Source of the DNA: a virus
Taxonomy: Duplodnaviria; Caudoviricetes
IMG/VR virus record: IMGVR_UViG_3300021962_008580
Span: 1-54,709 of that record
Direction: 5' to 3' (one strand)
Length of the DNA stretch: 54,709 nucleotides
Shown here: positions 730 through 28,042 of the stretch, one piece after another
How the letters are laid out: the number at the start of each line of letters is the position of its first letter
How positions within the stretch are numbered: the stretch's first letter is position 1
Notes under the pieces: model-generated
What the model was told of the DNA's origin: nothing
The model's database searches: none
The model's input: only the letters and a program-made list of their open reading frames with translations
Translations under genes and position numbers: made by a program

Positions 730-736
730 ATGTGTA

Positions 737-1612: not shown

Positions 1613-1622
1613 ACAATTTAGT

Positions 1623-1631: not shown

Positions 1632-1666
1632 ATTATACAATGATAAAAACGACGGATTATATATGT

Positions 1667-5640: not shown

Positions 5641-6522
5641 TTATATTGACGAGATATTCTCGCTTTTTATATCTCTAATACATTGGTCTATTTTTTCTTT
5701 GACCATTTCAAATGATATTTCTTTTGTGCATTCGAAGTTCTTGTTTCTGGGACACCACATCCATCCCATAGTACTCAATTTTAAGCACGTGTCATCTATC
5801 GTATCATCATTTAAACAACCATGACATACACTTTTGTTTATTACACGATAGCACCCGGCGTTAAATTCATTGGACTCTTCTGTACACCCGGATATTACTA
5901 TCGCTTTCTTTTTCATAGAAAAAGCAATCCAAGACAACCCCGAACTTAAACCCATAAAGAAGCTACAATTTTTAATCTGCTCCATTCTGTATTCAATAGG
6001 ATAATTTCCAGTTTCATTTATAGCACCCGAAGGAATATGATTCCATTTTACTCCTCCTTTACCAAACACCTCATCTCTATCTATAGCAAGAACATCATAT
6101 CCCAATTTTTTTAGGTATCGCACAACCTTATCCCAACCTGAATTATTATTCCAATATTTCATTTGAGCGGTGGATTGTACACTTATACATACATATTTTT
6201 TCTTCTTATTGAATTTTATTGGATTATTTGCTTTTAATTTTGGAATAATTTCCACATAATCCAAATCTAATTGCTTACATGCAACCTTTTGAAGATTGAA
6301 TCCTGGTTTGAACAACATGTATAATTTATGATGTACATCAGACTGAACATCTTGAGTTTTGGGTATAAATTTTACATTTTCATTGTCTGTATCAAATAAG
6401 TTATGCCATTTTGTTTTGACATATACCGTTCCGCCGTGCTTTTTTTGATACACATCGGGATATGGAGAAAACGCGATGTTATCTCCAAGACTTTCTGTAA
6501 CAAATTCTATTAGTGTGACCAT
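5641..6522 (-). CDS. TibC/Aah-family (autotransporter heptosyltransferase-like) glycosyltransferase, catalytic domain only
   Basis: SLGD, CISVQSTAQMKYWNNNSGW, FMGLSSGLSW and the iron-finger-type CHGC...CPRNKNFECT. Likely start is ATG 6522, a TAATG overlap with the upstream stop. Confidence 0.85.
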   Translation of the reverse strand: MVTLIEFVTESLGDNIAFSPYPDVYQKKHGGTVYVKTKWHNLFDTDNENVKFIPKTQDVQSDVHHKLYMLFKPGFNLQKVACKQLDLDYVEIIPKLKANNPIKFNKKKKYVCISVQSTAQMKYWNNNSGWDKVVRYLKKLGYDVLAIDRDEVFGKGGVKWNHIPSGAINETGNYPIEYRMEQIKNCSFFMGLSSGLSWIAFSMKKKAIVISGCTEESNEFNAGCYRVINKSVCHGCLNDDTIDDTCLKLSTMGWMWCPRNKNFECTKEISFEMVKEKIDQCIRDIKSENISSI

Positions 6523-7256
6523 TATATAATTGAAACTCCTCTTTGTCTTACAACTTTGCTCGCACATTCGTTTGCAAACTTGATAGACTGAATAATATCT
6601 TTACTTCTGCTATATTCTATAACAAGACCAGCCATGAACGAATCTCCGGCTCCAGATACATCTATGACATCCTGTTGCTCTACAGGATATCTGACCCCGT
6701 GATAATAGCAACCATCTTCTCCGCTTGTCTTGATGATTTTTTCTTCAAGATCTGGAGTTATGCTTGCCTCGGACCTGCTATATTCGTGATTATTGATTTT
6801 GATAAAAGTGACATTCTTTGCCCAAGGACCAAGAATTTTCTTTGTGTCCAAGAAAACAGAATTGTGATTTTTTGAAATGGTTTCTATGTCTTCTTCTGTA
6901 AGAAACCCTTTATCATAATCAGAAACAATAATGTGTTCATAATCATAATTCATGGAATCTATGTTTATGCGTTTGATTTCTTCGGCAGAATCCAATCTAA
7001 AAAACATATGATTGGTCGCCTTATGAATATATCTGGTTTTGGTTATATTGTACCAGTTTGGATTGGTTACTATATCACAATCGTCAACCATTGTCTTGAT
7101 GTTGCGATATACATTCTTAGCCATACCGGGATTGTCGTTTTGATCTATGATCTTTAGAACTGGTACTGGCTTATCTGGGCACATTCTGTTTGCGGAGCAG
7201 TATGCATGTACGTCTCTGCAACTATCACCGATTACTAATATTCTTTTTTTCATCAA
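6522..7256 (-). CDS. PfkB-family sugar kinase, HldA/RfaE domain I (heptose-7-phosphate kinase)-like
   Basis: ILVIGDSCRD, RMCPDKPVPV (compare RISPEAPVPV in HldE), VSDYDKG and DVSGAGDSF. Confidence 0.85.
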   Translation of the reverse strand: MMKKRILVIGDSCRDVHAYCSANRMCPDKPVPVLKIIDQNDNPGMAKNVYRNIKTMVDDCDIVTNPNWYNITKTRYIHKATNHMFFRLDSAEEIKRINIDSMNYDYEHIIVSDYDKGFLTEEDIETISKNHNSVFLDTKKILGPWAKNVTFIKINNHEYSRSEASITPDLEEKIIKTSGEDGCYYHGVRYPVEQQDVIDVSGAGDSFMAGLVIEYSRSKDIIQSIKFANECASKVVRQRGVSII

Positions 7257-8446
7257 AATAGAGTTTTCTTTTCAACAATCATAGAAGGTCTGGAAGAAGC
7301 GATAGCTTTTCTATATGCTTCAAGCATCTCTTCACCGTTCTTTGGTACGTATATTGGGAAAGTGACCATCTTCTTGAATCCTTCTGTAAAGTCCTGTGAA
7401 TGTGTAGGACCAGAATAGAATGGACCGCCGTCGGCAACAACGGTCTTTAGAATAACTGGACACTTATATTCTCCGTGAGAAATACGTTCGATATAGTTGA
7501 TATGGTTGATGATAGCGTCCGCAGCCACCAACATAAAGTCGTGACGTTCAATATAAACGACTGGACGATAACCCTCAAACGACATACCGATAGCCAATCC
7601 AGTCATCAAGTTTTCGGCAACTGGAGTTTCTATCTTCTTTTCATCCGGTACAAATACGGTGGTACCCATAGCGTTTCCATAAACGACGTTGTAACCAATG
7701 AAAACTGAATTTTGTTGTCCGATCTCTGTCATAGCCTTGATGACAGCGTCCTTGTATGAAATCTTTTCTGTTGTGATCGGAGGCAGAACTTCTGGAGCCA
7801 GATGTGGGAAATATTCCGCATCTGTCTTTTGCTTCATCTTGGAGATATCAATTCGTTCGTTGATACGAGCGTGAGGATATGTGATCTCGTACTTGTATCT
7901 TCTGACACAGCTCGGGAACATTTCCTCAAGTGACTTACCCCAACGAACAGTCTTTGGAGTTTCAACAGAACGGTTGTTGTCTTCGATGATGAATGTGCAA
8001 GGAAGATCAAAACCACTTACATATCTGGCAGCTTCAAATAGATGGCCAGAATCTTCTGTTCCGTCACCAACAAAACACCACACTCTTTGCTTTGAACCCT
8101 TCTTCTTTAGAGCAAGAGCGATACCGGCAGAAATAGCGGGAGTACCGCCGATGATAGCTGATGTAAAGAAGTTGAGCTTTCTGTCAAAGATGAACATGCT
8201 TCGTCCGTTGAGAATACGATCCTTGACGGTTTCTCTTGGAATACCAGACAAGATGGCATGATAATGGTTTCTGTGATTGGAGATGACATAATCACCTTCA
8301 TTCATTTCATTGAAGATATCAATAAGTTGGTCCTCGTTGCCACCGGAAAGGTGAAAAAGGAATGGAAGCTTGCACTCTTTGTATAGAGTTACAATCTCAT
8401 TCTCAAAATTGATCAGGTCTTGTTTGGTCAGGTTTGTTTTTTTCAT
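7253..8446 (-). CDS. Thiamine-diphosphate enzyme: E1-alpha-like domain fused to an E1-beta/transketolase pyrimidine-binding domain
   Basis: HLSGGNE, HRNHYH, ThDP motif GDG...EDNN, then ETPVAENLMTGLAIG and GPTHSQ. Confidence 0.85.
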   Translation of the reverse strand: MKKTNLTKQDLINFENEIVTLYKECKLPFLFHLSGGNEDQLIDIFNEMNEGDYVISNHRNHYHAILSGIPRETVKDRILNGRSMFIFDRKLNFFTSAIIGGTPAISAGIALALKKKGSKQRVWCFVGDGTEDSGHLFEAARYVSGFDLPCTFIIEDNNRSVETPKTVRWGKSLEEMFPSCVRRYKYEITYPHARINERIDISKMKQKTDAEYFPHLAPEVLPPITTEKISYKDAVIKAMTEIGQQNSVFIGYNVVYGNAMGTTVFVPDEKKIETPVAENLMTGLAIGMSFEGYRPVVYIERHDFMLVAADAIINHINYIERISHGEYKCPVILKTVVADGGPFYSGPTHSQDFTEGFKKMVTFPIYVPKNGEEMLEAYRKAIASSRPSMIVEKKTLF

Positions 8447-8447
8447 A

Positions 8448-9461
8448 TTAAATGTCTATCATTATTCTTCCACTTGAACCAGACTTCAACATTGAAACGG
8501 CAAGATTGATGTCTGACAAAGAATATCTATGAGTTACAAGGTGTTGAAGATTAATTTTATTGTTTTTATAAAGATTAATATATCTTGGGATATCAACGTC
8601 AGGATCAAATCCACCGGCTTGGGTTGTTCTGATGGACTGTCCGTTTGTGGAGAATAGTTTGCCTGGGTTGTTTATAGCCAAAGAAGAGCCAGGCTTTGGT
8701 TGTGCTACAAGAATGCATCTACCTTGTTCCGACATAGTCTCCAACAACTGTGAAAGAAGCTGTAGGATGCCTGTGGTATCTATGATACAATCAAATTTCA
8801 TCTTCTTGACAGTTTCTATATCTTCTTCCGAATGAAGGAAGGTTCCGCCATTCTTTTCGACCATAGACTTTTTATCTTTGTTGATATCCATGCCCCAGAC
8901 CAAAGCGTGAGAAAGATGGGAGGCGTAGATACAATTTAGACCAACTCCGCCGCAACCCAATACAAGAACTCTTTCACCAAACTTGATATTAGCATCTTTG
9001 TTTACTACGCTGAACCCAGTGGATATACCACAACCAAGAAGAGCAGCGAAATCGTTGCTGATATCTTGATCAATCTTTGTTATTCTGTTTTCTGATACAA
9101 CCGAGTATTCTGACAATGTGGTTATTTTACCACCAGACATACTTCTGCCATTCCAATTATATTGTGGGAAGTTAGCTTCAATACCAGATGCTTTTCTCCA
9201 ATGCAATACTACCTTGTCACCAACTTTGACTTTTGATACTCCTGGTCCAGTCTTTTCTACCAAACCACATCCTTCGTGACCGACAAGATGGGGCATAAAC
9301 TTCTCATTCCCCTTGAGCCCAGCAATTTCTTGTAGTTGTGCTCCACACAATCCACTTACAAGAACCTTTACAAGCACTTGCCCATATTCAAGATTGACTG
9401 GAAGATTGACTTCATCCACAACCAACGGTTCATTTTTCTTTACAAGTATTGCTGCTTTCAT
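8448..9461 (-). CDS. Zinc-dependent alcohol dehydrogenase (MDR family)
   Basis: GLCGAQ, GHEGCG, LLGCG and Rossmann GCGGVG motifs. Confidence 0.9.
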   Translation of the reverse strand: MKAAILVKKNEPLVVDEVNLPVNLEYGQVLVKVLVSGLCGAQLQEIAGLKGNEKFMPHLVGHEGCGLVEKTGPGVSKVKVGDKVVLHWRKASGIEANFPQYNWNGRSMSGGKITTLSEYSVVSENRITKIDQDISNDFAALLGCGISTGFSVVNKDANIKFGERVLVLGCGGVGLNCIYASHLSHALVWGMDINKDKKSMVEKNGGTFLHSEEDIETVKKMKFDCIIDTTGILQLLSQLLETMSEQGRCILVAQPKPGSSLAINNPGKLFSTNGQSIRTTQAGGFDPDVDIPRYINLYKNNKINLQHLVTHRYSLSDINLAVSMLKSGSSGRIMIDI

Positions 9462-10453
9462 CCTTTTTTCTTTCCGTATATAACGCCCTTGAGGTCACAC
9501 AAAGTATACCAAGATTCAAACGCTAAGTTCAAGCATTTGACATCAAATCCGGCTGCTATCAATTTATCAACTATGAATTGGGTTCTGTGATTTTCGTTAT
9601 GATGAAATTCGATCAAAACTTGGTCTATGTTCTTCAAATCCTCGACGGATAAGCTATTAAATATGTCATATTCATATCCTTCTATATCCAACTTCCAAAG
9701 ATTGATTTTTTCACACTTTGTTTTTTTAATCAAGCTTTTCAAAGATATGCATTCCACGGTCACCGGCCTAGCGTCGCCAACCATATTTTCGGTATCATAT
9801 TTTTTTTGATTATCTATCTGAAATGAATTTAGTGTGGTTTTATCCGTGAAATAAAATTGCTTCTGTCCATCTTGAGTGTCTAAAGCCACATTATATCTTT
9901 CAACTCTGGTGTCGAATGTTCTGTCTAAAATATAATATGATGGAGATGGCTCTAAACAAACAACTTTGCTTGCTTTTCTCTTTAAGCAATAGTCGGCAAA
10001 AGTTCCACAACTTGCTCCAACGTCAAATACAACATCGCCTTCTTGAACAATATTGTTCAAAAACGAATTATTGTAGAAATCGAGATATTGGATGTAAAAA
10101 CAGTCAGATACGTTTAGATCGCTTGAATCATCCGAGTAAAAATATTTTGGAGTAGGTCTATCAACAATTTTTATTTCAGAACTAAAAAGTTTTACTCCAT
10201 TTTCATACAAGGAAAAAATAAAACCTGTGAAGTCTGTGTTAAGTAATTTAACTCTGCTTGTTGGAGAAACAAAATAATTTACTCCGGCTGTAATTTCCAC
10301 ATCTTTCCAATAAAAGCATGTTAAATTGGAAGTTCTTTCTTTTAAAACAATGGTTACTTTTTTAAAAGATTTGGTTAAAACAAAGTTTAATTTGTTTTCA
10401 TCTTTTTCAAAGCTCCAAGATAAATTTATTGCTGTTTCGGTGGATTCACTCAT
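9458..10453 (-). CDS. FkbM-family SAM-dependent methyltransferase
   Basis: VVFDVGASCG, CLEPS, KLDIEGYE and IEFH motifs. Confidence 0.85.
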   Translation of the reverse strand: MSESTETAINLSWSFEKDENKLNFVLTKSFKKVTIVLKERTSNLTCFYWKDVEITAGVNYFVSPTSRVKLLNTDFTGFIFSLYENGVKLFSSEIKIVDRPTPKYFYSDDSSDLNVSDCFYIQYLDFYNNSFLNNIVQEGDVVFDVGASCGTFADYCLKRKASKVVCLEPSPSYYILDRTFDTRVERYNVALDTQDGQKQFYFTDKTTLNSFQIDNQKKYDTENMVGDARPVTVECISLKSLIKKTKCEKINLWKLDIEGYEYDIFNSLSVEDLKNIDQVLIEFHHNENHRTQFIVDKLIAAGFDVKCLNLAFESWYTLCDLKGVIYGKKKG

Positions 10454-12993
10454 TTGATGTTCCTAATTTCTATAGATGATGTAATATACTGACTCTTTGA
10501 TTGTATTAAGTCAAGAATTAATGATGCAATTTGTTGAGAATCCATAAGATCTGAATAGTTTAGTCTATTTTCCGTCATTTTTGTTTTCATGGCACCTACA
10601 TAAATATCCACCACCTTGATTTTTGAATTCTTCTGATTTATTGAAAGTGAAGAACCAAAACCAGAAAGTCCGAACTTTGATGCACAATATACAGATTCAT
10701 TATAGTTTGGTTGTTTTCCGGCCAACGAGTTTATATTGATTATCCAACCAGATTGATTGGTAAGAGTCAAATGTTTATAAAGATATTTGGAAAGAAGCAT
10801 AGGAGCTACAAGATTTACGTTTATGATTTCTTGTATTCTTTGATCTGAAACATCCATAATACCATCTCCACAATATATTCCAGCATTATTTATCAAACAG
10901 TTGATGTTGTTTTTGACAATGTATTCTTCCATTTTTTGAACACTGTTGATGTCAGAAAAATTACAAAATTCATATTTGTTGTTTTGGTTGTTGCGATTTG
11001 CTTGACCATAAAACTGAACGTTTCTGTTGGAACATTCTTTTTCAAGAGATTGGCCCAATCCACCCGATATTCCCGTCACCAATATTTTTGGAAAATTTTG
11101 TTTGATTGAAATGTTTGTATCTTCCACCAATCCATCTCGAACGTCTATATAAACCAAAACTTCGGTGTATTTATTCAAAAAGTCTGGGTTAAATAAATCC
11201 CACTTGATGTCTGTTCTAGCCGTAAAATCATAAACTTTGTAATTCTTGAATCGTCTCAGATAATTGTCTCTGAAGTTTGCGAATTTTTCTTTAAATCCAT
11301 TCGGACCAAGATGCCATTCACCAGCTATCTTTTTTACGTTCTTGGTTAACCAATCAAAATTCTCATCGGTGAAAATATCATACTCTCCTCCTTCACAATC
11401 GATCTTTAGAAAATCGATTTTATCTATGTTATTTTCTTTAATTAAGTCGGAGAACGTGATGGTGTTAAAATCTTCGGTTATTTTGAACGTCAATCCATTT
11501 TTAATAGATTGGCGTTTGTAAGATATTCCCACGTTCAATAACGTGTGTGGAGCACCTTTGAGTTTATTCTTGATGGTTTCTTGTCTTGAAGCTCCTGGTT
11601 CCAACGTCAATATTTTCTTAGGTTTTCTTTTTGAAGCAGCATAAGAGAACCAACCAAGAAATCCTCCTATATCAACGACTATATCGTCTTTTTCAACCTT
11701 GAAGAATTTTTCATATACGGTACCTTCTTTTTTAAAGAACTCTTCGTATATGATATATTTTTCTTTGGCACTTATGTCTTTTTCTTCTTCGACATATTCA
11801 AGTTCTTTTCTATAATCCAAATCAATGACATCGTTTATTTTTTTGATGACCATCTCCGGAGTTATTTCCTTGGTACATTCAAAATTTTTGTTTCTCGGGC
11901 AAAAATCCCATTTTGATTTGTCAAATGGTATTTCGTTGGCACAACCGTGGCAAACGTTTTTATTCATTCCAACTCTAAATGGACTATAAAATTCAGTCCA
12001 GACATCGCTGATACCAGAAATCATTATTACAGGAGTACCAACCGACCAAGACAACCAAGATAAACCAGAAGTCAATCCTATGAAGAATTCAGCCCCTGCG
12101 ACTTGGTTTATTCTTTCTTCTATAGGAAAATCTCCGGTTTTATCAATTGCTCCTTCTGGTATAGAGTTTTGATAGTTTTCCGTTCCAAAAACTTTGTACT
12201 TGTCTATACACCAAACCTCATAGCCAAGACCGTTGAGATATTTGATTACTTCATCCCATCCGCCCTTTCTGTTCCAGTATTTGTATTGAGCGGTGCTTTG
12301 TGTAGCGATACATACATACTTTTTTCCATCGTTGTATGTTTTATTAAATTTTAATTTTGGCTTTATTTCCATTTCTCCAAAACCAAGAATGCTTGGAGCG
12401 ATGGAAGATAAAGACAACTGTTTCGGATCGTGGAAAATTTTTCCTTGCCAATCTTCGTAATAATATCCCAATCTATAAGATGCATAGTAAGAAAGATCAG
12501 AGTCGGTTGATGATAAAAACTTTATATTTGGGTAATTTTCTTTGAATATTTTATTCCAAGTGGGATCAAATACCACACAACTTAATTCACAGTTGTGTTT
12601 TTTCTGAAAGGCGTCAATCGCTCCAATGTATGCAAGCAAATCTCCCATAGAGTTTGTGTCGCATGTAATCTTTACTCTCTTTCCTTTTAGATTGAATATT
12701 GTCTCCTTTACTATTTCGTTTCCGCATTTGACAACAATTTTCCAATTGAAAAAATATCTCATGCTTGGAGAAGACCACATTCCATTCTTTATTTTTGTGG
12801 AATATATGTTTTTTCCATTCGAGTTATCAATAAAATCTATGGAATATTCTTTTTCCACATTTCCTACTATCTCGACTTTGGCTCCTTCTATGAAAGAAAT
12901 TTTAATTTCATTTTTATTTTCATCCACCGATTTATCATATGGACGCCAAACCGGCTTGGTTTCGTTGTATATTCTTGTTAAAGTTTGTTTCAT
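10450..12993 (-). CDS. Trifunctional fusion: TibC/Aah-like heptosyltransferase + FkbM methyltransferase + SDR oxidoreductase
   Basis: Glycosyltransferase: SMGD, QSTAQYKYWN, IGLTSGLSW, CHGC...CPRNKNFECT. Methyltransferase: VVDIGGFLG, KIDCEGGE. SDR: TGISGGLG, NNAG, YCASK. Confidence 0.85.
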   Translation of the reverse strand: MKQTLTRIYNETKPVWRPYDKSVDENKNEIKISFIEGAKVEIVGNVEKEYSIDFIDNSNGKNIYSTKIKNGMWSSPSMRYFFNWKIVVKCGNEIVKETIFNLKGKRVKITCDTNSMGDLLAYIGAIDAFQKKHNCELSCVVFDPTWNKIFKENYPNIKFLSSTDSDLSYYASYRLGYYYEDWQGKIFHDPKQLSLSSIAPSILGFGEMEIKPKLKFNKTYNDGKKYVCIATQSTAQYKYWNRKGGWDEVIKYLNGLGYEVWCIDKYKVFGTENYQNSIPEGAIDKTGDFPIEERINQVAGAEFFIGLTSGLSWLSWSVGTPVIMISGISDVWTEFYSPFRVGMNKNVCHGCANEIPFDKSKWDFCPRNKNFECTKEITPEMVIKKINDVIDLDYRKELEYVEEEKDISAKEKYIIYEEFFKKEGTVYEKFFKVEKDDIVVDIGGFLGWFSYAASKRKPKKILTLEPGASRQETIKNKLKGAPHTLLNVGISYKRQSIKNGLTFKITEDFNTITFSDLIKENNIDKIDFLKIDCEGGEYDIFTDENFDWLTKNVKKIAGEWHLGPNGFKEKFANFRDNYLRRFKNYKVYDFTARTDIKWDLFNPDFLNKYTEVLVYIDVRDGLVEDTNISIKQNFPKILVTGISGGLGQSLEKECSNRNVQFYGQANRNNQNNKYEFCNFSDINSVQKMEEYIVKNNINCLINNAGIYCGDGIMDVSDQRIQEIINVNLVAPMLLSKYLYKHLTLTNQSGWIININSLAGKQPNYNESVYCASKFGLSGFGSSLSINQKNSKIKVVDIYVGAMKTKMTENRLNYSDLMDSQQIASLILDLIQSKSQYITSSIEIRNIK

Positions 12994-15119: not shown

Positions 15120-15126
15120 ACTAAAG

Positions 15127-15155
15127 AATATATAAAATTGTTAAAATTGTGTCAA
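15127..15155 (-). promoter_or_regulatory. Sigma70-type promoter for the glycosylation operon
   Basis: Minus strand reads TTGACA (15155-15150), 17 nt, TATATT (15132-15127), ending 7 nt before ATG 15119. Confidence 0.7.
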
Positions 15156-15793: not shown

Positions 15794-15821
15794 AATAACC
15801 TTTGTTGGTTATATATATGAA

Positions 15822-18716: not shown

Positions 18717-18751
18717 ATTATTATAAATATATATGACAGTACATAATCGTG

Positions 18752-21700
18752 TCATTTTTTACTCAAAGTTTCAAGTTGATTTTCAAGTTTCTCGATACGA
18801 TCTTGCTGAGCTTTGATTGCTTCAATAAGTAGAGGAACAAGCTTCTCGTAACGTACTGTCATGTACTTTTCATCGATTGGTGCTGGTGCAACAATTTCTG
18901 GAAGAATTGCGTTGACTTCTTGGGCAGATACACCGACCTCTCGTTTCTTTTTATATCCCAAGGAGACCGCGATGTCATTTGCTTCAAAATAAAACCCAGA
19001 CAGCGCTTTAACTTTCTCAATTGGATTTTCAATCGGACCAATCTTTGTCTTCAAACGTTCGTCGGAATAATAAGCGGTTATGTTGTCTGTGGCACGAATT
19101 TCGCCGGTGGTTCCGGATGGGGAAGTCCCAACGCCCAGCGAATTTGTTATACGTGATGATCCACTTACAACAAATGAACCTGTAATTATTGTGTCTCCAT
19201 TAACATCCAATAATGAATTTGGATCTAGTTTTCCCACACCTATTCTACCAGAAGTTTCAAACAAAACTGAACTGTTTATTACATTTGTGGCTGAAGAAAA
19301 CTTGGCTATATATCCAGAGGTTCCAGAGTTTGCAACGGATGTTCCAGAAGACCCGCTGGTTCCAGAAGAACCGTTTGTGCCCGCTCCTCCATTTACTCCA
19401 CTCGTCCCACTTGTTCCGGATGCTCCACTTGACCCGCTTGTGCCGGAAGATCCAGACGTACCGTTTGTTCCAGAAGATCCGCTACTTCCGGAAGTTCCAC
19501 TTGTTCCACTTAGACCAGAAGTTCCACTGGTTCCAGATGCTCCGCTTGATCCGGATGTACCGGACGAACCACTAGTACCGGAAGATCCGTTTGTTCCACT
19601 TGTGCCAGAGGTTCCACTGCTACCACTTGTTCCACTCGCTCCAGAAGAACCAGACGTTCCAGATGTACCACTGCTTCCGCTTGTGCCAGAAGTACCGCTT
19701 GATCCGCTTAATCCAGACGTACCGCTTGTTCCAGACGCTCCACTCGTGCCAGATGTGCCAGAGCTTCCAGATGTACCGCTTGTACCGGATGTTCCACTAG
19801 AACCACTTGTACCAGAAGAACCGGAAGTACCGGACGATCCGCTTGTTCCACTTACTCCAGATGTACCACTTGTACCAGATGCGCCGCTTGTTCCGGAGGT
19901 ACCACTGCTTCCACTGGTTCCACTGGTTCCGTTTGTGCCTGAGGTACCATTTGTTCCAGAAGTTCCATTGGTACCAGATGTACCATTTGTGCCGGACGTT
20001 CCATTGGTGCCCGAAGTTCCGTTTGTTCCACTGGACCCACTAGTTCCAGAAGACCCGCTTGTACCATTTGTTCCACTTGATCCGCTGGTGCCAGACGAGC
20101 CACTAGTACCATTAGTACCGCTTGTTCCGTTGGTGCCACTCGAACCATTTGTTCCAGAAGATCCGCTTGTTCCTGATGTTCCACTAGAACCGCTCGTTCC
20201 ATTTGTGCCGCTGGTACCGTTGGTTCCACTGGTTCCATTTGTTCCAGATGACCCGTTGGTGCCACTGGTGCCGTTGGTTCCTGACGTTCCATTGGTTCCA
20301 CTGGTTCCATTTGTTCCAGATGATCCGTTTGTACCGCTTGTGCCATTTGTTCCCGAAGTTCCGTTTGCTCCACTTGATCCAGACGTTCCTGAAGAACCGC
20401 TGGTTCCGTTGGTACCAGAAGACCCGCTTGTTCCAGAGGATCCGCTTGTACCACTTGTTCCGTTTGTTCCAGATGTTCCGCTGGTACCGGAGTTTCCAGA
20501 AGAGCCAGATGTACCACTGGTTCCAGAATTTCCAGAGGTACCCGATGTTCCATTTGTTCCCGAAGATCCAGATGTGCCACTTGACCCGTTAGACCCACTT
20601 GTTCCACTCGATCCGCTAGAACCATTGGTACCAGACGTTCCACTCGTACCACTATTGCCGCTTGTTCCCGATGTACCGCTTGAACCACTAGTTCCCGATG
20701 CTCCAGATGACCCGCTTGTGCCGCTTGTTCCAGAAGTTCCCGACGATCCGCTTGTACCGTTCGTACCAGAAGTTCCATTTGTTCCCGAAGTTCCATTTGT
20801 ACCGCTTGTTCCATTTGTCCCAGAAGTTCCATTTGTTCCAGATGTTCCACTGGTGCCGGAGTTTCCAGAAGAACCAGACGTTCCGCTAGAACCGCTGCTT
20901 CCCGAAGTTCCGCTGGTACCTCTGGTTCCAGATGTGCCGCTTGTACCAGATGTTCCACTTATTCCACTGGTGCCGCTCGTTCCACCGCCCAAAGAATTTA
21001 ATGCGTAGCTGGCCGTAATTGCATAAGACGCCGTACCAAATAAAGATCCAGTGATACCGGCTGATACTCCAAGAGAACCAGTTATCACAGCACTTCCGCT
21101 GACATCAAATACAGCGCTAGGATTTGTTTTTCTTATACCAATTCTACCTCCACCGGTTAAAACCATCATATCTTCGTAATCGGTTTCTCCCCCTCCACGA
21201 TTTACGTAGAATTTCAATTGACCACCCCAATCACCAGGATTCAATCCAGTACTGGTCGTATCATATAAACCAGAAATTCCGGCATATCTCCAATTTGGTG
21301 TAGCGGGAATTGCTACAGACAATGGATCATAACCACTGAATGTAATTTTTCCTCCTGTTCCATTGGCTGTGTTATAATTGTGAAGATTCAACATGTCAGC
21401 AACGGAATTGCTTGAAGTATACAAAGTTTCCATTACTCCAGGGCGTGTAATTGTGTCTCCAATCGTTATATATTTTCCATCATCAAATATGGCACTTCCA
21501 GCTATATTATTTGAACCAGAATTATAATATCCCACAGCCAAACTATTTTCTGCGACGTTGTTTGTAGCAATATTGTATCTGGAGCTAGATTCCATGTATA
21601 CATGTTTCGTTCCACCTCTAAACACATTATTTGATACTACGTTGGCAGATCCGGTATATCCTCCAATATAAATTGATTTTCCTGTTCCGGCATTAAACAA

Positions 21701-24700
21701 TGTGTTACTTGTTATCGTACTTTCATACATGTTCAAACCATTAATCAACGTTGCGGTTGTATCTGCTATAATAAGATTATTGCTAATATAACAAGATTCA
21801 ACGTTTTTTAGAACTATTGAATCCCCGCTGTTTCTAGCATCAATATGGCTGTTTAATATAGAAACAAGAGCAACACGCCCAGCAATATTTCTTCCAGCCC
21901 AGTCGGTTCCAGCAATTCCGGTAAATGCGGCGTTGCCATCGACATAGATCCCACACGTCACAGGAACAAACAATAACTGAGAAAAGGTCATTCCTTCCGT
22001 GTTCATTCCCGCCGCGGTATAATCTACGGTATTTATTTTTATACCCGTGTTCCAATGATTGAATTGACTTTGGTTTACAGAAGAATTTACGCAAAGTCTT
22101 TTAAATTCAAGTCCAGTACCAACCCAACCACTTCCAGTCGGGTTTCCATGAAAGAAACATCTATCTATTCTTGTATTCCAAGCCGATTCTACGGTTACAG
22201 CTTTTAACCAATAATTTGAATTATCAAATGATAAAACTTGAACACCCGATAAATCAACGGAAACATTTTCGTGTTGAGATGTACTAGTTGTTCCATATGT
22301 TATGTCAATTGCAGATCCCGAAATTGCCGTGGCCGCGTGAAATCCAAGATCTCTTATAGCCACTTGATAAACGGAATCGGACGTAGTACCATTATCCATA
22401 TTGAATTTTATGGCCGTGTCATTTCCCGTCTGTTTTATTATAGATACATTGGCACTATTTCCAAACAAAGCTATATCACAACTTGGATTACTTGTTAATT
22501 GTAATGCGCCCGTAATTACATATACTCCATCAGGAAAGTAAACCGATCCTGTTTTTACAGCCTGAGAAGCAGAAATTGCGGTCTGAATAGCCGTGGTGTC
22601 ATTTGTAACACCATTCCCCGTTGCCCCATAGTCTTTAACATTAAAATAGGAAGTATCTGCTGATTTTAATGCATATGAAGCTGTTCCAAATAAAGATCCT
22701 GTTATTCCGTTTAAAACATCCAAAGATCCAGATATTTTCACACTTCCCGTCATCATAAAACTGCCACTGATGTCAAGTGTGGCTTGTGGAGATGTTTTAT
22801 TTATTCCCACATATGTGCCAGCATCAAATATTATAGATTCTGTAGAAGTTTGATTTGCCGCATATTTTACAACATAGTTTAATGATCCTGATATAGCCAA
22901 GGAGGTGCCGCTTGTGCCAGAAGTTCCGCTTGCACCATTTGTTCCAGATGATCCATTTGTTCCACTTGTTCCATTAGTACCACTCGAACCATTTGTTCCC
23001 GAGGATCCACTTGTTCCAGATGAACCAGATGTACCATTAGCTCCACTACTTCCAGATGTACCAGAGCTCCCAGATGTACCGCTTGTGCCAGAAGAACCAC
23101 TTTGTCCAGAAGTTCCACTTGTTCCTGAAGAACCAGACGTACCGCTTGTACCAGATGTACCACTTTGTCCAGATGTACCGCTTGTTCCCGATCCTCCATT
23201 TACTCCACTTGATCCACTGGTTCCAGAAGAACCGCTTGTTCCAGATGTTCCACTCGAACCAGAAGAACCACTTGTGCCAGAACTTCCCGATAGTCCGCTG
23301 GTTCCAGAAGACCCGCTTGTTCCAGATGTTCCGCTAGACCCAGAAGTTCCATTGGTACCGCTGGTTCCACTCGTACCAGATGCACCACTCGTTCCACTTG
23401 AACCAGACGTTCCATTTACTCCGCTTGTACCGCTTGTACCGCTTAAACCGCTTGTTCCAGATGAACCGGATGTTCCACTTGTTCCAGAAGTGCCAGACAA
23501 TCCATCCGTTCCAGATGTGCCATTTGTACCGCTTGACCCAGATGTTCCGTTTGTTCCAGATGTTCCGTTTGTTCCCGATGTGCCATTTGTTCCAGAAGTT
23601 CCGTTAGTTCCTGATGTACCGTTTGTACCACTTGAGCCAGATGTTCCAGAAGATCCATTTGTTCCACTCGTTCCAGAAGTGCCGCTACTTCCAGAGGTTC
23701 CACTGAAGCCACTGGTTCCAGAAGATCCAGAAGTTCCACTAGAACCATTTGTTCCCGATGTTCCATCAGTTCCACTGCTACCAGAAGTGCCGTTAGAACC
23801 ATTAGATCCAGAAGTACCACTTGTTCCGCTAGAACCATTGGTACCAGACGTTCCACTCGTACCACTATTTCCGCTTGTTCCTGATGTTCCAGATGAACCG
23901 CTTGCGCCGCTTGTTCCACTTGTGCCAGAAGTTCCCGACGATCCGCTTGTACCGTTCGTACCAGAAGTTCCATTCGTTCCGCTGGTACCATTAGTTCCTG
24001 ACGTGCCATTTGTTCCTGAAGTACCATTTGTGCCACTGGTACCATTGGTTCCGGATGTTCCGTTTGTCCCAGATGTTCCATTCGTTCCGCTGGTACCGTT
24101 GGTTCCAGATGTTCCATTAGATCCGTCAATCCCAGAAGTTCCTGATGTTCCACTCGAACCATTACTACCACTTATTCCGCTTGTACCGTTTGTTCCCGAA
24201 GTTCCAGATGTTCCACTAGACCCGTTAATACCAGATGTACCACTTGTACCCGAAGTTCCGTTTGTACCAGAAGAACCAGAAGTTCCACTCGAACCATTTG
24301 TTCCACTGGCGCCGCTTGTTCCAGAAGTTCCGTCTACTCCTGATGTACCACTGGTTCCAGACGATCCAGAAGTACCAGAACTGCCACTTGTACCCGACGA
24401 ACCATTTGTTCCAGAACTACCACTGGTTCCTGAGGATCCGCTACTTCCATTTGTACCCGACGTTCCAGAAGTTCCGCTGGTTCCAGATGTAGACGTATAT
24501 GCCGCCGAGGCAACTCCTATATTTTTTACGTTTACTATAATTGAAGGAGCCGCGGGAGCATTATATGGATCCGGTGGATTTGTTCTGGCCGGAATTGCTG
24601 TTATTTGAGTATACTGTGTTGATGCCGCCATCATCAACTCAATATAATCACCTTGTAACGCATCTACGATGATGCTTACAAACGGAAGCTGCAATACAGA

Positions 24701-27700
24701 GTTCGATACCAGTTTAAAATATGAGTCGCTTCTTGGAATATCTGTTCCGTTCTTTCTTACCCACCAGTGAACAGTTGAGTCCGTTCCTTGAGTTTTTTCT
24801 ACTTGTGGAGAAAAAGAAAATTCGTATATTCCAGAATGCCCAAAAGTTATTTTTGAATTATCCACCACCGATATTCCATTTTCTATTTCAACGGCGTTAT
24901 AAGTAATGGACATAGTAACGTCTGCGCCAGGCACAACCTGATCTTGGTCGCTACTATATTGAGCATAGTAGTTTACCACTTCTACACCAGATGTACCGCT
25001 GGTTCCCGAAGTACCATTTATACCACTGGTTCCGCTAGTTCCGGAACTTCCATTTGTACCACTGGTTCCGTTTGTGCCTGATGCCCCCGACACTCCAGAT
25101 GAACCAGACGTTCCGCTACTTCCGCTTGTACCACTACTACCACTTGTGCCAGAACTTCCATTTGTACCACTGGTTCCGTTTGTACCAGAGATTCCACTAG
25201 ATCCAGATGAACCATTGGTTCCTGAAGTCCCACTTGTACCGCTTGTTCCACTTTCACCGCTTGTGCCAGAAGTTCCACTATTGCCTGAGCTTCCTGAAGT
25301 TCCGTTTGTTCCCGATGAACCAGAAGACCCACTGGTTCCAGAAGAGCCGTTTGTTCCACTACTGCCATTTGACCCAGAACTTCCACTTGTACCGTTTGCT
25401 CCGGACGTTCCAGATGAGCCTGAACTTCCATCTATTCCGCTTGTGCCTGAACTACCACTGGTGCCATCAATTCCACTGGTTCCTGATGATCCGTTTGTAC
25501 CACTCGAACCATTGGTACCAGAAGTTCCACTTGTTCCGGATGAGCCGGAGCTTCCACCAGTTCCGCTTGTGCCCGAACTGCCACTAGTACCTCCAGTACC
25601 ACTGGTTCCGCTGGTTCCGCTGGTTCCTGATGAACCGTTTGTGCCACTTGTGCCATTGGTACCGCTTGTTCCATTTGTCCCAGAACTTCCACTACTTCCA
25701 GACGATCCACTGGTACCACTACTTCCAGATGATCCGCTAGTTCCACTGGTACCAGATGAACCACTAGTTCCATGTGATCCAGAAGTTCCTGATGAACCAT
25801 TTGTTCCTGATGAACCACTAGTTCCAGATGTTCCTCTGGTGCCAGAAGTTCCCGAAGAACCGCTGGTTCCAGAGGTTCCTCCACCACCTCCGCCACTTGT
25901 TCCGGAGGTTCCAGAGGTTCCAGAAGATCCACCCGCTCCTCCGCCCCCTCCTGTTTGAATACTCAGTCCATCAACATCGACAAAAAATTTCTTGTTTAAT
26001 GGAAGATATGTGTGGTTGTATTTAAAATTGTATGAGTTTTCTCCGTAAGCCAAATTTCCATTTGAGTCATATAGTTCAACATCTATTTCAAATAACTCAT
26101 TTTTTACCGTGTTTGGAATAGGAACATTTGCTGAAAAAACGTCTGGAGAATATCCAACAGAATGATATGGTTTTATTGAAACTTGAGAAAGATTCCATCC
26201 ACCGGCAACAGGAACAATCTTTATTGTTCCAAATTGTGTATTTGGTACAAAGAAAGAGCTGGTATAAAGTTCATTAGCACCATAATTGTAAGAGTTATCA
26301 ATATAACCTATTTGTGTTATTTCTTCTCCGCTCAAGAAATAAACATACAATTGAGAAGAATCGGTATTTGCGGATTGCCCTCTCACCCTCATAGAAAACT
26401 GATACAAACTATTTTCTATTAGTTTTATCGGGTTACTATTATGTACACTACCAGCTAGCAAGTTTTCTTGAGAACTTCCATATGCTGAAAGTAATGAAGG
26501 AACATCGTATGAGGCCGTAGGATATGGAAGTTTACTGTTGAACGCCTCGGTATCTCCATACCAATACGAATTGGATAATAACGTTGGAGAAACATATGCG
26601 GAAGTTCTGGACGGTTCAGCTACATTATCCTTGAATATAACATAATCGGTTTTAGAAGTGTTGGAAGAGTGTGATATAGAAACCCCATCTATCAACACAT
26701 CGTTTGATTGATTGAAAGTAAATGATCCATTTTTTAACCAATACTGGTCGGTATACGCCTGAGAATAAAATTCGCCTGGTTTTCCATGAAACGCGTTATC
26801 AAAATCTGTGGTCTTGATGCACTCTTGAGGTTCTATTCTTCCTTCCACCAGTAATGTTTTACTTTGGGGAGTGTTTAAGCTTCTTCCATATATCTTGTAT
26901 GAAGAAACTTGACCGCAAAGAGCACGTAAATTTCTTACTTCTATATGAGCGTAAGCTTTTACCGCCGCGACACTGGCTGAAACATAAGATCTTGGTAAAG
27001 TAAACGGTATATCTTTGTATATTATCTCATAATTTCCAGAACTGATACTCAGAACATAAAAATTTTTCTTGAAATAACTATTTTGTTTATTTGGATCATT
27101 TTCCGAAACATAATTTCGAATGTTTGTGAGATCATTTTTTGCGTATTGAGAATTTTGATTTGTTCTACCAATCAAATCCGAAACCGTTGAAAATGGAATG
27201 GATATAAGTAATGCATTCTCACTAACTATACGTTTAATTTTGGCTATGAAATCTGTATCAAGAGGTCCGTTGTATTCTATTTCATTGTTTCCTTGATCCG
27301 AATACAAAAATTTTGTAACATTTATATCTTTTACTCGAATATTTTCTCCTTCCATCGCAGAAGAAAATGCGGTTCCACCTTGTCTGTAAATTTGATATAT
27401 TACTTCATCTCCTTGAGGATCGTAATCTCCGTTGCTGTTCTTTTTTGGAGTTACCGCGTTGGAATAAAAAGAACCTGAAGCAACAGAAAACGGTTGTGAT
27501 GGATATTCTGGAACTTTATGAAGAACGGGAGTAACGGTCAGTGTTGGGTAATCAAAAAATCTTACTTGAGATTTTGTTGAAAACTTGGTGTCAATTGCGA
27601 CGTTTCTTCTCCAGATAATAGTACCAGTTGGAAGAGGGGAGCTTGCTGGAGCTTGTAATAATGGTCCGTTCTGATTGTCGGAGACCTTGTATGGAACGTT

Positions 27701-28042
27701 TTGATAATATTCAAAACTTCCTGTATATGTTCCGAGATCAACTCCCTGTGCCGAAACCTCTATATACCCAAAACCAGGTTCAACATTTTCTGGAATTTTT
27801 GTATAATACGTGGTTCCAAGAGTTGTTGACTCTCCATATTTGGCATCCTTAGCTTTGGATGTCTGAGTAAAAAGTTCTACATTTTTTGATGTATAAACCT
27901 TTACCGAAATGCTTGAATTTGGCAGTATTCTTTTGGAAGGATTTACTACAAAAGAATTTTTGCCCGCACCAAAAACACCATCGAAATCTGTTATAAAAAA
28001 GAAGTCGTTGGATTGTGGATCTGTGTCTATAATATCTGCCAT
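18752..28042 (-). CDS. Giant tail fibre/spike with Gly-X-Y repeats, C1q/BclA-like domain, pectate-lyase-like beta-helix and C-terminal S74 intramolecular chaperone
   Basis: 3096 aa with three GTS/GSS/GTN blocks. FNVKDYGATGNGVTNDTTAIQTAI marks a beta-helix N-cap; YSDERLK...VRYEKLVPLLIEAIK marks the S74 domain. Confidence 0.85.
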   Translation of the reverse strand: MADIIDTDPQSNDFFFITDFDGVFGAGKNSFVVNPSKRILPNSSISVKVYTSKNVELFTQTSKAKDAKYGESTTLGTTYYTKIPENVEPGFGYIEVSAQGVDLGTYTGSFEYYQNVPYKVSDNQNGPLLQAPASSPLPTGTIIWRRNVAIDTKFSTKSQVRFFDYPTLTVTPVLHKVPEYPSQPFSVASGSFYSNAVTPKKNSNGDYDPQGDEVIYQIYRQGGTAFSSAMEGENIRVKDINVTKFLYSDQGNNEIEYNGPLDTDFIAKIKRIVSENALLISIPFSTVSDLIGRTNQNSQYAKNDLTNIRNYVSENDPNKQNSYFKKNFYVLSISSGNYEIIYKDIPFTLPRSYVSASVAAVKAYAHIEVRNLRALCGQVSSYKIYGRSLNTPQSKTLLVEGRIEPQECIKTTDFDNAFHGKPGEFYSQAYTDQYWLKNGSFTFNQSNDVLIDGVSISHSSNTSKTDYVIFKDNVAEPSRTSAYVSPTLLSNSYWYGDTEAFNSKLPYPTASYDVPSLLSAYGSSQENLLAGSVHNSNPIKLIENSLYQFSMRVRGQSANTDSSQLYVYFLSGEEITQIGYIDNSYNYGANELYTSSFFVPNTQFGTIKIVPVAGGWNLSQVSIKPYHSVGYSPDVFSANVPIPNTVKNELFEIDVELYDSNGNLAYGENSYNFKYNHTYLPLNKKFFVDVDGLSIQTGGGGGAGGSSGTSGTSGTSGGGGGGTSGTSGSSGTSGTRGTSGTSGSSGTNGSSGTSGSHGTSGSSGTSGTSGSSGSSGTSGSSGSSGSSGTNGTSGTNGTSGTNGSSGTSGTSGTSGTGGTSGSSGTSGTGGSSGSSGTSGTSGTNGSSGTNGSSGTSGIDGTSGSSGTSGIDGSSGSSGTSGANGTSGSSGSNGSSGTNGSSGTSGSSGSSGTNGTSGSSGNSGTSGTSGESGTSGTSGTSGTNGSSGSSGISGTNGTSGTNGSSGTSGSSGTSGSSGTSGSSGVSGASGTNGTSGTNGSSGTSGTSGINGTSGTSGTSGVEVVNYYAQYSSDQDQVVPGADVTMSITYNAVEIENGISVVDNSKITFGHSGIYEFSFSPQVEKTQGTDSTVHWWVRKNGTDIPRSDSYFKLVSNSVLQLPFVSIIVDALQGDYIELMMAASTQYTQITAIPARTNPPDPYNAPAAPSIIVNVKNIGVASAAYTSTSGTSGTSGTSGTNGSSGSSGTSGSSGTNGSSGTSGSSGTSGSSGTSGTSGVDGTSGTSGASGTNGSSGTSGSSGTNGTSGTSGTSGINGSSGTSGTSGTNGTSGISGSNGSSGTSGTSGIDGSNGTSGTNGTSGTNGTSGTNGTSGTNGTSGTNGTSGTNGTSGTNGTSGTNGTSGTNGTSGSSGTSGTSGTSGASGSSGTSGTSGNSGTSGTSGTNGSSGTSGTSGSNGSNGTSGSSGTDGTSGTNGSSGTSGSSGTSGFSGTSGSSGTSGTSGTNGSSGTSGSSGTNGTSGTNGTSGTNGTSGTNGTSGTNGTSGSSGTNGTSGTDGLSGTSGTSGTSGSSGTSGLSGTSGTSGVNGTSGSSGTSGASGTSGTSGTNGTSGSSGTSGTSGSSGTSGLSGSSGTSGSSGSSGTSGTSGSSGTSGSSGVNGGSGTSGTSGQSGTSGTSGTSGSSGTSGTSGQSGSSGTSGTSGSSGTSGSSGANGTSGSSGTSGSSGTNGSSGTNGTSGTNGSSGTNGASGTSGTSGTSLAISGSLNYVVKYAANQTSTESIIFDAGTYVGINKTSPQATLDISGSFMMTGSVKISGSLDVLNGITGSLFGTASYALKSADTSYFNVKDYGATGNGVTNDTTAIQTAISASQAVKTGSVYFPDGVYVITGALQLTSNPSCDIALFGNSANVSIIKQTGNDTAIKFNMDNGTTSDSVYQVAIRDLGFHAATAISGSAIDITYGTTSTSQHENVSVDLSGVQVLSFDNSNYWLKAVTVESAWNTRIDRCFFHGNPTGSGWVGTGLEFKRLCVNSSVNQSQFNHWNTGIKINTVDYTAAGMNTEGMTFSQLLFVPVTCGIYVDGNAAFTGIAGTDWAGRNIAGRVALVSILNSHIDARNSGDSIVLKNVESCYISNNLIIADTTATLINGLNMYESTITSNTLFNAGTGKSIYIGGYTGSANVVSNNVFRGGTKHVYMESSSRYNIATNNVAENSLAVGYYNSGSNNIAGSAIFDDGKYITIGDTITRPGVMETLYTSSNSVADMLNLHNYNTANGTGGKITFSGYDPLSVAIPATPNWRYAGISGLYDTTSTGLNPGDWGGQLKFYVNRGGGETDYEDMMVLTGGGRIGIRKTNPSAVFDVSGSAVITGSLGVSAGITGSLFGTASYAITASYALNSLGGGTSGTSGISGTSGTSGTSGTRGTSGTSGSSGSSGTSGSSGNSGTSGTSGTNGTSGTNGTSGTNGTSGTNGTSGTNGTSGSSGTSGTSGTSGSSGASGTSGSSGTSGTSGNSGTSGTSGTNGSSGSSGTSGSNGSSGTSGSSGTNGTSGTSGNSGTSGTSGSSGNSGTSGTSGTNGTSGTSGSSGTSGSSGTNGTSGSSGTSGSSGANGTSGTNGTSGTNGSSGTNGTSGTNGTSGTNGTSGTNGSSGTNGTSGTNGTSGTNGTSGSSGTSGTSGSSGTNGSSGTNGTSGTNGTSGSSGTSGSSGTNGTSGSSGTSGSSGTNGTSGTNGTSGTNGTSGTNGTSGTNGTSGTNGTSGTSGSSGTSGTSGASGTSGTSGVSGTSGSSGTSGSSGTSGSSGTSGTSGTSGSSGTSGTSGASGTSGTSGLSGSSGTSGTSGSSGTSGTSGSSGASGTSGSSGTSGTSGTNGSSGTSGSSGTSGSSGASGTSGTSGLSGTSGTSGSSGSSGTNGTSGSSGTSGSSGASGTSGTSGVNGGAGTNGSSGTSGSSGTSVANSGTSGYIAKFSSATNVINSSVLFETSGRIGVGKLDPNSLLDVNGDTIITGSFVVSGSSRITNSLGVGTSPSGTTGEIRATDNITAYYSDERLKTKIGPIENPIEKVKALSGFYFEANDIAVSLGYKKKREVGVSAQEVNAILPEIVAPAPIDEKYMTVRYEKLVPLLIEAIKAQQDRIEKLENQLETLSKK
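19310..20990 (-). repeat. Gly-(Thr/Ser)-(Ser/Asn) triplet block 3 of the fibre
   Basis: Degenerate 9-nt periodic coding repeat; boundaries approximate. Confidence 0.9.
22905..24490 (-). repeat. Gly-(Thr/Ser)-(Ser/Asn) triplet block 2 of the fibre
   Basis: Degenerate 9-nt periodic coding repeat; boundaries approximate. Confidence 0.9.
24985..25955 (-). repeat. Gly-(Thr/Ser)-(Ser/Asn) triplet block 1 of the fibre
   Basis: Degenerate 9-nt periodic coding repeat beginning with poly-Gly; boundaries approximate. Confidence 0.9.

Follow-up and report, generated by a model that had tools for sequence, protein, structure and literature searches.

Closest to the system reported here are TibC and Aah of Escherichia coli, members of the BAHT family (TIGR04414) which act on the adhesins TibA and AIDA-I, respectively (PDB 4RAP/4RB4; PMC4358343). 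According to that paper, TibC modifies Ser residues in Gly/Ser/Thr/Asn-rich loops and is active on synthetic peptides; its activity needs Asp-110, the catalytic base, Thr-226, Lys-230, Arg-286 and Trp-305, which bind the sugar nucleotide, and Cys-339, Cys-342, Cys-358 and Cys-370, which make up an iron finger. Aah carries Ser at the position of TibC Pro-300 and accepts both heptose epimers, and the paper links the two. Here we analyse a stretch of tailed-phage DNA, the whole of IMG/VR record IMGVR_UViG_3300021962_008580 (54,709 nt, 54.7 kb; hereafter the window), in which two TibC-like enzymes are encoded in a seven-gene operon and a giant collagen-like fibre is encoded close by. From the sequence we consider it probable that this operon specifies a phage cytoplasmic protein O-glycosylation system, made as one expression unit, with the collagen-like fibre of the phage itself as the chief acceptor.

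The phage locus resembles TibC-TibA and Aah-AIDA-I in the family of its enzymes, in their catalytic, binding and iron-finger residues, and in that the gene of a cytoplasmic enzyme stands near that of a repetitive Ser-rich protein, which in the phage is a plausible acceptor. It differs in being phage-encoded, in having two copies of the enzyme (one fused to FkbM and SDR domains, the other without the N-terminal barrel), in a candidate acceptor that is collagen-like and proline-free, and in the addition of GT4 glycosyltransferases, methyltransferases and redox enzymes. BclA of Bacillus and BclA1/BclA3 of Clostridioides difficile are likewise prokaryotic Gly-X-Thr-rich collagen-like filaments which are O-glycosylated, but they depend on non-BAHT transferases, lie on the spore surface and have proline in their repeats, and the BclA sugars are rhamnose and anthrose, unlike the heptose proposed here. 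Giant viruses too decorate their surface fibres or capsid with virus-encoded, host-independent machinery, and the multi-domain GT-GT-methyltransferase proteins of chloroviruses resemble the fusions of the phage operon; these are, however, viruses of eukaryotic hosts which use other enzyme families, and Mimivirus glycosylates hydroxylysine, not serine. In mycobacteriophages the acceptors are, as Freeman et al. in 2023 are said to have found, the C-termini of capsid and tail-tube subunits. According to a citing passage in PMC12619734, those phages encode transferases beside their structural genes and modify virion proteins in the cytoplasm, as is proposed here, but that case is not known to involve a BAHT, a collagen-like acceptor or such sugar-precursor genes. 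According to PMC8968730, the sugars of BclA are believed to contribute to the hydration network of its triple helix, and Mimivirus is described as modifying its own collagen. Pelagimyophages are T4-like and aquatic, carry glycosyltransferases and a heptose-pathway gene among their tail-fibre genes, and have some structural proteins with collagen triple-helix repeats (PMC7029224); the available sections of that paper differ in reading these genes as host O-chain modification and do not mention TibC-type enzymes. A literature search over titles and the starts of abstracts gave no phage-encoded BAHT and no glycosylated phage collagen-like fibre, although supplementary annotation tables could hold relevant entries.

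All long open reading frames (ORFs) of the window lie on the minus strand, as do the operon, fibre and motif features given below. The operon comprises seven genes from 15119 to 5641, whose junctions are, in order, ATGA, ATGA, ATGA, a 1-nt gap, TGATG and TAATG. This bears out the translational coupling that had been proposed from the letters of the window without database searches (the sequence-only reading) and fixes the start of the kinase gene at 7253 and that of the last gene at 6522. Pfam and NCBIfam searches upheld every enzyme identification of that reading, namely two TibC/Aah-like enzymes, an HldA-like kinase, a double GT4, two FkbM domains, an SDR, a Zn-dependent alcohol dehydrogenase (ADH) and a thiamine diphosphate (ThDP) enzyme. 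In order of transcription the window includes a baseplate region (with gp25-like and wedge-like genes), primase, SbcCD, fibre, a 977-amino-acid (aa) protein (p977), a 213-aa protein (p213), the operon, a 132-aa protein (p132), and a large terminase and portal of T4 type. Thus the operon does stand between terminase and fibre as had been claimed, but it adjoins neither, p977 and p213 intervening on the fibre side and p132 on the terminase side. Just ahead of it, at 15128-15136, is an AT-rich promoter-like motif, ATATATATA, which, with at most one mismatch allowed, has 73 matches in the window against 24.5 +/- 6.9 expected. These gather a short way ahead of the operon and of the genes for the fibre, p977, p213, p132, the portal and several proteins of the baseplate region, with zero matches inside the operon. 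The motif would thus be a shared promoter element, probably a late one, and we count its presence ahead of both the operon and the fibre, portal and baseplate-region genes in favour of the fibre being the acceptor.

The first TibC-like enzyme, TibC1, makes up residues 1-388 (11830-12993) of an 847-aa TibC-FkbM-SDR fusion (10450-12993), and the second, TibC2 (5641-6522, 293 aa), is the product of the last operon gene. The curated equivalog cut-off of TIGR04414 is 200 bits; TibC1 scored 318.8 bits over profile positions 6-373 of 374 (319.9 bits in a six-frame search), and TibC2 was borderline, reaching 202.8 bits as a 308-aa ORF but falling short of the cut-off, at 196.6 bits, when six frames were searched, and covering profile positions 83/86-373 only. 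Against solved structures, TibC1 matched TibC (4rap) with an E-value of 3e-62, its residues 28-383 aligning with 22-380, and TibC2 matched TibC in the PDB at E 2.3e-46. Judged by NCBIfam score and by the match to solved TibC, both proteins are members of the BAHT family. When TibC residues were mapped by hand from the HMMER alignments, D118, T234, K238, R294 and W313 of TibC1 fell on D110, T226, K230, R286 and W305 of TibC, and C348, C351, C365 and C373 on the iron-finger cysteines C339, C342, C358 and C370. All nine are kept in TibC2 and are invariant across seven aligned phage homologues, TibC2 included. Since TibC1 aligns from TibC residue 22, the N-terminal beta-barrel (TibC residues 1-97) is present in it; the TibC2 match, by contrast, starts at 83-86 and leaves no room for a barrel, so that the two TibC/Aah-like enzymes stand as claimed except that the second lacks this domain. 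The position of TibC Pro-300 is occupied by Thr or Ser in the phage enzymes, and by Ser in TibC2. A full-length TibC-like gene followed directly by a barrel-less one of 295 aa was also seen in an unrelated complete 317-kb phage genome (G114, C1:311240-313182), and the resemblance of this tandem to the pair in the window hints at a two-enzyme arrangement.

The family to which these enzymes belong bears on another explanation, that the cassette remodels the host surface (lipopolysaccharide (LPS), O-antigen, or a surface or secreted protein), for instance to block superinfection, and lies near the fibre only because both share a hypervariable host-recognition island. Clusters for LPS and O-antigen typically contain GT4, FkbM and heptose-pathway enzymes, and relatives of the phage vary greatly from one another between fibre and terminase. 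Host modification is also the published reading for the glycosyltransferases and rfaE found among pelagimyophage tail-fibre genes (PMC7029224). On the other hand, both GT9-type enzymes of the window score as BAHT and not as WaaC/WaaF, and both have retained the iron finger that is specific to BAHT; no membrane-associated transferase, flippase or ligase came up when the window ORFs were scanned with Pfam; and remodelling of the host does not predict the link to Ser/Thr repeats described below (27/50 records against 1/36 of proline type). We therefore hold a host-surface target to be unlikely. The same scans found no autotransporter-type domain in the window ORFs, and the repetitive protein near the enzymes is the collagen-like fibre.

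This fibre (18752-28042, 3096 aa), the proposed acceptor, matches Pfam Collagen (PF01391) over 11 stretches at E 1.5e-171 and Peptidase_S74 at E 3.7e-9. An N-terminal part of 698 aa, which is 46-59% identical in relatives, is followed by collagen-like blocks 1 and 2 (residues 699-1021, 24980-25948, as runs 699-722 and 725-1021), by block 3 (residues 1187-1714, 22901-24484), which is 528 aa of unbroken Gly-X-Y, by a pectate-lyase-like beta-helix (residues 1715-2353, 20984-22900; PF12708 at E 1.3e-16, NosD at E 5.5e-5), by block 4 (residues 2354-2902, 19337-20983; 549 aa of Gly-X-Y), and at the C-terminus by an S74 intramolecular chaperone domain (residues 2993-3051, 18890-19066; PF13884 at E 6.6e-11). 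The four blocks, of 24, 297, 528 and 549 aa, amount to 466 triplets or 1398 aa; the roughly 1400 aa of G-T/S-S/N repeats noted earlier are thus confirmed in extent, their nature being that of collagen-type Gly-X-Y triplets. Position X is Thr in 298 triplets and Ser in 118, position Y is Ser in 363 and Asn in 86, and Ser occurs 481 times in the 466 triplets. The 932 X and Y positions include 6 Asp, 2 Arg, 2 Glu and 1 His but 0 Pro, and the repeats do without the Pro or charged pairs at X/Y that usually stabilise a triple helix. Codon use in them is mixed, which indicates that the repeat is kept at the level of the protein. With the collagen triple-helix rise of about 0.29 nm per residue, the 1398 residues would span about 0.4 micrometre as a predicted triple helix.

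If enzymes of this type serve such fibres, the two should be found together in other phages. Block 4 of the fibre used as query against viral contigs gave 79 loci, and the 50 of these on contigs of at least 30 kb, all proline-poor and Ser/Thr-rich except one (L196), were searched for TibC. A TibC-like gene scoring over the cut-off was present in 27/50 of these records. Among the records that were at least 90% complete, 8/11 were positive, the eight being exactly the genomes of 250 kb or more in the set. For 26 of the 27 positives, no more than 13.2 kb (median 6.5 kb) separated the TibC-like gene from the matched repeat segment; in the eight largest genomes the distance was 0.6-11.8 kb (two records treated as circular). 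As a control we took loci with five Gly-Pro-X triplets, 38 of them on contigs of at least 28 kb, of which 35 contained a Gly-X-Y ORF with 14-75% Pro; 36 were searched and a TibC-like gene was found in one. The difference between Ser/Thr-type (27/50) and proline-type (1/36) records gives a Fisher p of 1.3e-7, a value that overstates the evidence because the records are phylogenetically non-independent and come from different types of phage in the two sets. In the converse direction, a search of viral contigs with the TibC alignment gave 269 stretches, 190 of them encoding relatives, of which the best 80 of the 190 were analysed. In all 16 sampled TibC-bearing records with Collagen matches the repeats were rich in Ser/Thr (59-94% of X/Y) with at most 2% Pro; G019 and G020 are an exception in having Gly-X-Thr repeats with some Pro. 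The two most complete TibC-bearing records (78% and 100%) had 41 and 38 Collagen matches. When bacterial genome contigs were searched with the same alignment, one short contig matched. The co-occurrence of TibC-like genes with GTS-type repeats across phages, on which the sequence-only reading had staked its proposal, was thus found.

A similar association was noticed within the lineage of the window. For its terminase, at least 591 relatives were found in viral contigs and the best 80 analysed, and gene arrangements were read wherever the interval from SbcCD to terminase was visible. A collagen-type fibre followed by a TibC cassette occurs in the window, L006, L008 and L116-118, whereas a short, repeat-free fibre homologue with no cassette occurs in L089/L090/L091, L147 and L143, whose records (15-97 kb) gave neither a Collagen nor a TibC match. 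Among the intervals seen there was no clean case of a collagen-type fibre without the cassette at this locus. One record, G052 (L102), was considered as such a counter-example and dropped, as its contig ends inside the gene upstream of p213 and the position of the cassette is not visible. Among deposited phages a TibC-like gene (E <=1e-10) was present in 4/50,697 records, one of which is the cultured Microcystis phage Mel-JY01 (L349, PP395634.1), with a terminase 54% and a portal 50% identical to those of the window. Its plus-strand frame 2-3052, open at the start of the record and unannotated, contains 606 aa of Gly-Thr/Ser-Ser Gly-X-Y, and the order of GTS collagen ORF, structural protein, 1227-aa GT4-methyltransferase-TibC fusion and terminase is as in the window. 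It may be noted that the deposited annotation places two antisense 'hypothetical proteins' (1-651 and 739-2298) over the collagen frame and calls the 1227-aa TibC-bearing protein only 'methyltransferase FkbM'. Of the other deposited phages with a TibC-like gene, a 735-kb uncultured one has a Ser/Thr Gly-X-Y ORF 4.7 kb away, and in a 636-kb one no such ORF was found within 20 kb. The co-occurrence across phages, together with the agreeing presence and absence within the lineage, makes glycosylation of its own fibre by the phage the best-supported reading.

These results bear equally on the possibility that the cassette glycosylates other virion proteins (capsid, tail or baseplate), instead of or besides the fibre, its tie to the fibre being indirect. 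Mycobacterium phage-encoded transferases are reported to glycosylate capsid and tail-tube subunits, in a citing passage of PMC12619734; some TibC-bearing lineages have no Ser/Thr collagen nearby; and the window itself has further Ser/Thr-rich stretches, such as those of an 832-aa protein at 47291-49789. Such targets would, however, leave unexplained why TibC tracks Ser/Thr repeats in both presence and position, and why cassette and repeats are jointly absent from relatives, and we think this reading improbable.

The remaining operon enzymes would extend, methylate, tailor or supply the sugar. The first gene (12990-15119) encodes a 709-aa double GT4 of GT-B type (Glycos_transf_1 at E 6.5e-27 over two stretches, with Glyco_trans_1_4, GT4-conflict and Glyco_transf_4). 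In the fusion, TibC1 is followed by a weak FtsJ match in Pfam (residues 428-467), an FkbM-type methyltransferase domain (11254-11712; Methyltransf_21 at E 1.1e-10, residues 505-580) and an SDR domain (10450-11088; adh_short at E 2.8e-29, residues 637-810, and many NCBIfam SDR models). A stand-alone FkbM methyltransferase of 331 aa (9458-10453) matches Methyltransf_21 at E 1.8e-14 and TIGR01444 with 72.7 bits against a cut-off of 37.7. The Zn-dependent medium-chain ADH (8448-9461, 337 aa; ADH_N at E 1.7e-15, ADH_zinc_N at E 1e-8) reached the cut-off of no NCBIfam model and is 69-93% identical in those relatives that also carry the kinase. The ThDP enzyme (7253-8446, 397 aa; E1_dh at E 8.5e-16, Transket_pyr at E 2.5e-11) has an E1-alpha-like PP domain fused to an E1-beta/transketolase-like Pyr domain, without a C-terminal TK domain, and matches E1 alpha and beta chains in the PDB at E 1e-8 to 6e-12. 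In L008 and L116 a split Transketolase_N and Transket_pyr pair, unrelated at the 1e-8 level, sits between ADH and kinase; its presence at the same site suggests that a two-carbon-transfer step is part of the module. Two readings fit such a step: it may make sedoheptulose 7-phosphate to feed heptose synthesis, or it may put a two-carbon branch onto a keto-sugar made by the SDR, which the ADH then reduces.

The kinase (6522-7253) is a short HldA-like PfkB protein of 243 aa, against about 310 aa expected, and the short length is kept in relatives. Its best NCBIfam model is TIGR02198 (rfaE domain I), which it matches in three stretches with a score of 103.7 bits, the cut-off being 345, and its best PDB match by sequence is HldA of Burkholderia cenocepacia (4e84, E 1.7e-9). 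In a Foldseek search with its AlphaFold2 model (pLDDT 90.5), ranks 1-7 were all HldA chains (E 1.1e-17, TMq 0.76). The C-terminal PfkB motif D-x-S-G-A-G-D (D198, S200, G201, A202, G203, D204) is invariant in 30 sequences. The kinase has 3799 metagenomic homologues at E <=1e-5, the best 120 of which are 215-257 aa long, and some are labelled heptose kinase by the JGI pipeline. The description of this protein as HldA-like is thus sound in that HldA is its closest solved relative by both sequence and fold, though it falls far below the cut-off for HldA itself. The extended module is rare: among the best 80 TibC-bearing viral loci a homologue of the kinase was found in 3, of the ADH in 3, of the ThDP enzyme in 1 and of the SDR in 2, compared with 59 for GT4 and 37 for FkbM.

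The ThDP, ADH and SDR set could also fit a small-molecule pathway, and phage glycosyltransferases often glycosylate DNA, as stated in PMC7029224 and PMC12619734, so that the enzymes might act on a non-protein target, as in DNA hypermodification, or make a free small molecule. We give this very little credence, since BAHT enzymes are known only as protein O-heptosyltransferases (PMC4358343), since Pfam scans of the window turned up no gene for base hypermodification, and since the operon sits among virion and packaging genes.

For glycosylation of the fibre we propose the following course. The TibC-type enzymes would transfer heptose from ADP-heptose onto Ser hydroxyls of fibre chains which are still unfolded; the two GT4 domains may lengthen the glycan and the two FkbM domains O-methylate it, while the SDR, Zn-ADH and ThDP enzymes would tailor or supply the sugar. 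The HldA-like kinase would boost the activation of heptose, the remaining steps to ADP-heptose coming from the host. The C-terminal S74 domain would then nucleate trimerisation, giving a sugar-coated triple helix of about 0.4 micrometre whose glycan may serve stability, shielding from proteases or antibodies, or adhesion. Heptose is proposed on account of the conserved ADP-heptose-binding residues and the HldA-like kinase, and methylation on account of the two FkbM domains; a branched glycan, which the sequence-only reading held possible, follows from one way, among two or more, of interpreting the ThDP enzyme. The preference of TibC for Ser and its activity on peptides, which implies that a folded beta-helix is not required of the acceptor, fit this course, as does the hydration role believed for the BclA glycan. 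More tentatively, and with more doubt than confidence, we suggest that a methylated glycan on hundreds of serines may replace hydroxyproline and let a proline-free, uncharged fibre of about 0.4 micrometre fold and persist as a triple helix, that these may be jumbo phages with a captured adhesin heptosyltransferase, and that the sugar is perhaps built in part by the ThDP enzyme as a branched or chain-extended heptose.

Several observations weigh against the fibre as acceptor. The case rests wholly on gene context, and the pairing of enzyme and repeat is not universal, adjacency being seen only in a subset. A Gly-X-Y run of at least eight triplets within about 10 kb was present in only 7/80 TibC-bearing loci, and a Ser/Thr/Gly-rich window of any sort in 9/80. 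A Pfam Collagen match was found in only 23/48 whole TibC-bearing records, most of these 48 being fragments of 4-40% completeness in which many Collagen matches touch the contig end. Several long TibC-bearing records gave no Collagen match over the whole record. Of these, G004, G023, G029 and G032 were checked: their contigs stop 7.7-20 kb downstream of TibC and do not reach the distance of roughly 26 kb at which a giant collagen ORF of about 3400 aa lies in the relatives G024 and G038. As an observation on the contigs themselves, G002, G014, G018, G035, G036, G039, G041, G042 and others that bear TibC stop within a collagen-like gene; it seems that assembly is interrupted by the repeats, and adjacency would then be hidden in fragment data. 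A further arrangement in the terminase lineage (L052, L055, L056 and L063) combines the TibC cassette with a fibre homologue of about 710 aa that is repeat-free; G024 and G038 are the two records of this kind in which the position of the giant collagen gene was read. Three complete small phages of 30-35 kb, the negatives among the records at least 90% complete, have Ser/Thr collagen repeats, and the search found no TibC in them. In the TibC lineage G015-G017, G015 (L037 4019-5503) has a neighbouring Gly-Pro/Ala-Gln collagen with almost no Ser/Thr, and a whole-record Pfam search found no Collagen in G016 and G017. Co-occurrence and adjacency alike could be exaggerated by common descent and by a hypervariable island in which enzyme and repeat both lie.

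The biochemistry of the family offers some difficulty as well. The known BAHT acceptors are beta-helical autotransporter passengers, unlike collagen-like chains, and TibC modifies Ser and not Thr, according to PMC4358343, while Thr is the commonest X residue of the fibre. The thumb-tip residues F265 and V266 of TibC are not conserved, being Asn and Tyr in TibC1 by our hand mapping, and it would be unsafe to suppose a dodecamer like that of TibC. No GmhA-, GmhB- or HldC-type gene came up in the Pfam scans, so that only one candidate step towards ADP-heptose is encoded in the window. Weighing these points against the co-occurrence and the presence and absence within the lineage, we find the earlier proposal that the phage glycosylates its own fibre partly supported and retain it as the best available, though as one drawn from gene context and with a pairing that is not universal. 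What the sequences show is the enzyme families, the order of the genes and their co-occurrence with the repeats; the chemistry and the acceptor are inferred from these.

Among the neighbouring genes, p977 lies between the fibre and p213 and may be read as 15822-18755 (977 aa) or, from Met-14, as 15822-18716 (964 aa); the position of ATATATATA makes Met-14 (18716) the likely start. Its N-terminus has a cytidylyltransferase-like domain (ESM Atlas, 0.95), its homologue in Mel-JY01, 33% identical, is annotated as cytidylyltransferase-like, and it has a K-x-D-G ligase-like motif with a weak RNA_ligase match (E 0.12). The idea that p977 is the missing ADP-heptose adenylyltransferase was dropped, since it also occurs in the cassette-less relatives L143 and L128. 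For this reason, and as no Pfam or NCBIfam model matches it, p977 is not counted in the system. p213 (15152-15793) lies between p977 and the operon and p132 is an ORF between the operon and the terminase; a PHROGs search gave no family for p213, p977, p132 and six further window proteins. Upstream of the fibre, in the same place as in relatives, is an 1102-aa SbcCD fusion (28076-31384) of an Mre11-like phosphoesterase and a Rad50/SbcC-like ATPase (Metallophos with SMC_N/AAA_23/SbcC Walker B).

Two further proteins are possible virion surface proteins, one of 1052 aa (33267-36425) with FG-GAP repeats and a weak dockerin-like match, and the 832-aa protein (47291-49789) beside the baseplate genes, which has a long Gly/Ala-rich N-terminal half and a Ser/Thr/Gln-rich linker. 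The portal ORFs of some relatives are 1019-1086 aa long (L005 10746-13802, L088 3181-6405, L089 8182-11268, L140 4177-7434) and match the 616-aa window portal as two separate pieces, which suggests that they hold an insertion, possibly an intein or homing element. A peptide deformylase is encoded at 53235-53867 (Pfam, E 5.9e-28); this is a frequent auxiliary gene in cyanophages and, along with the presence of a Microcystis phage among the relatives, is a hint that the host may be a cyanobacterium. The record is about 25% complete by CheckV, so the full phage genome is probably about 200 kb, and no near-identical DNA was matched among deposited phages.

If the phage does glycosylate its own fibre, BAHT enzymes would act not only on bacterial autotransporters but also on collagen-like fibres of viruses, and large aquatic phages would glycosylate their virions through an enzyme family not used in mycobacteriophages. 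It would also offer an explanation, open to test, of how Gly-Ser/Thr repeats that are proline-free and uncharged could form stable fibres, and if the glycan does stand in for hydroxyproline, collagen would be stabilised here by chemistry of a new kind and BAHT enzymes would have gained a new class of acceptor. The cultured relative Mel-JY01 is a potential bench model for such work. The finding, if true, would further change how the glycosyltransferase and heptose genes in the host-recognition islands of aquatic phages, now taken as host O-antigen modification, are read.

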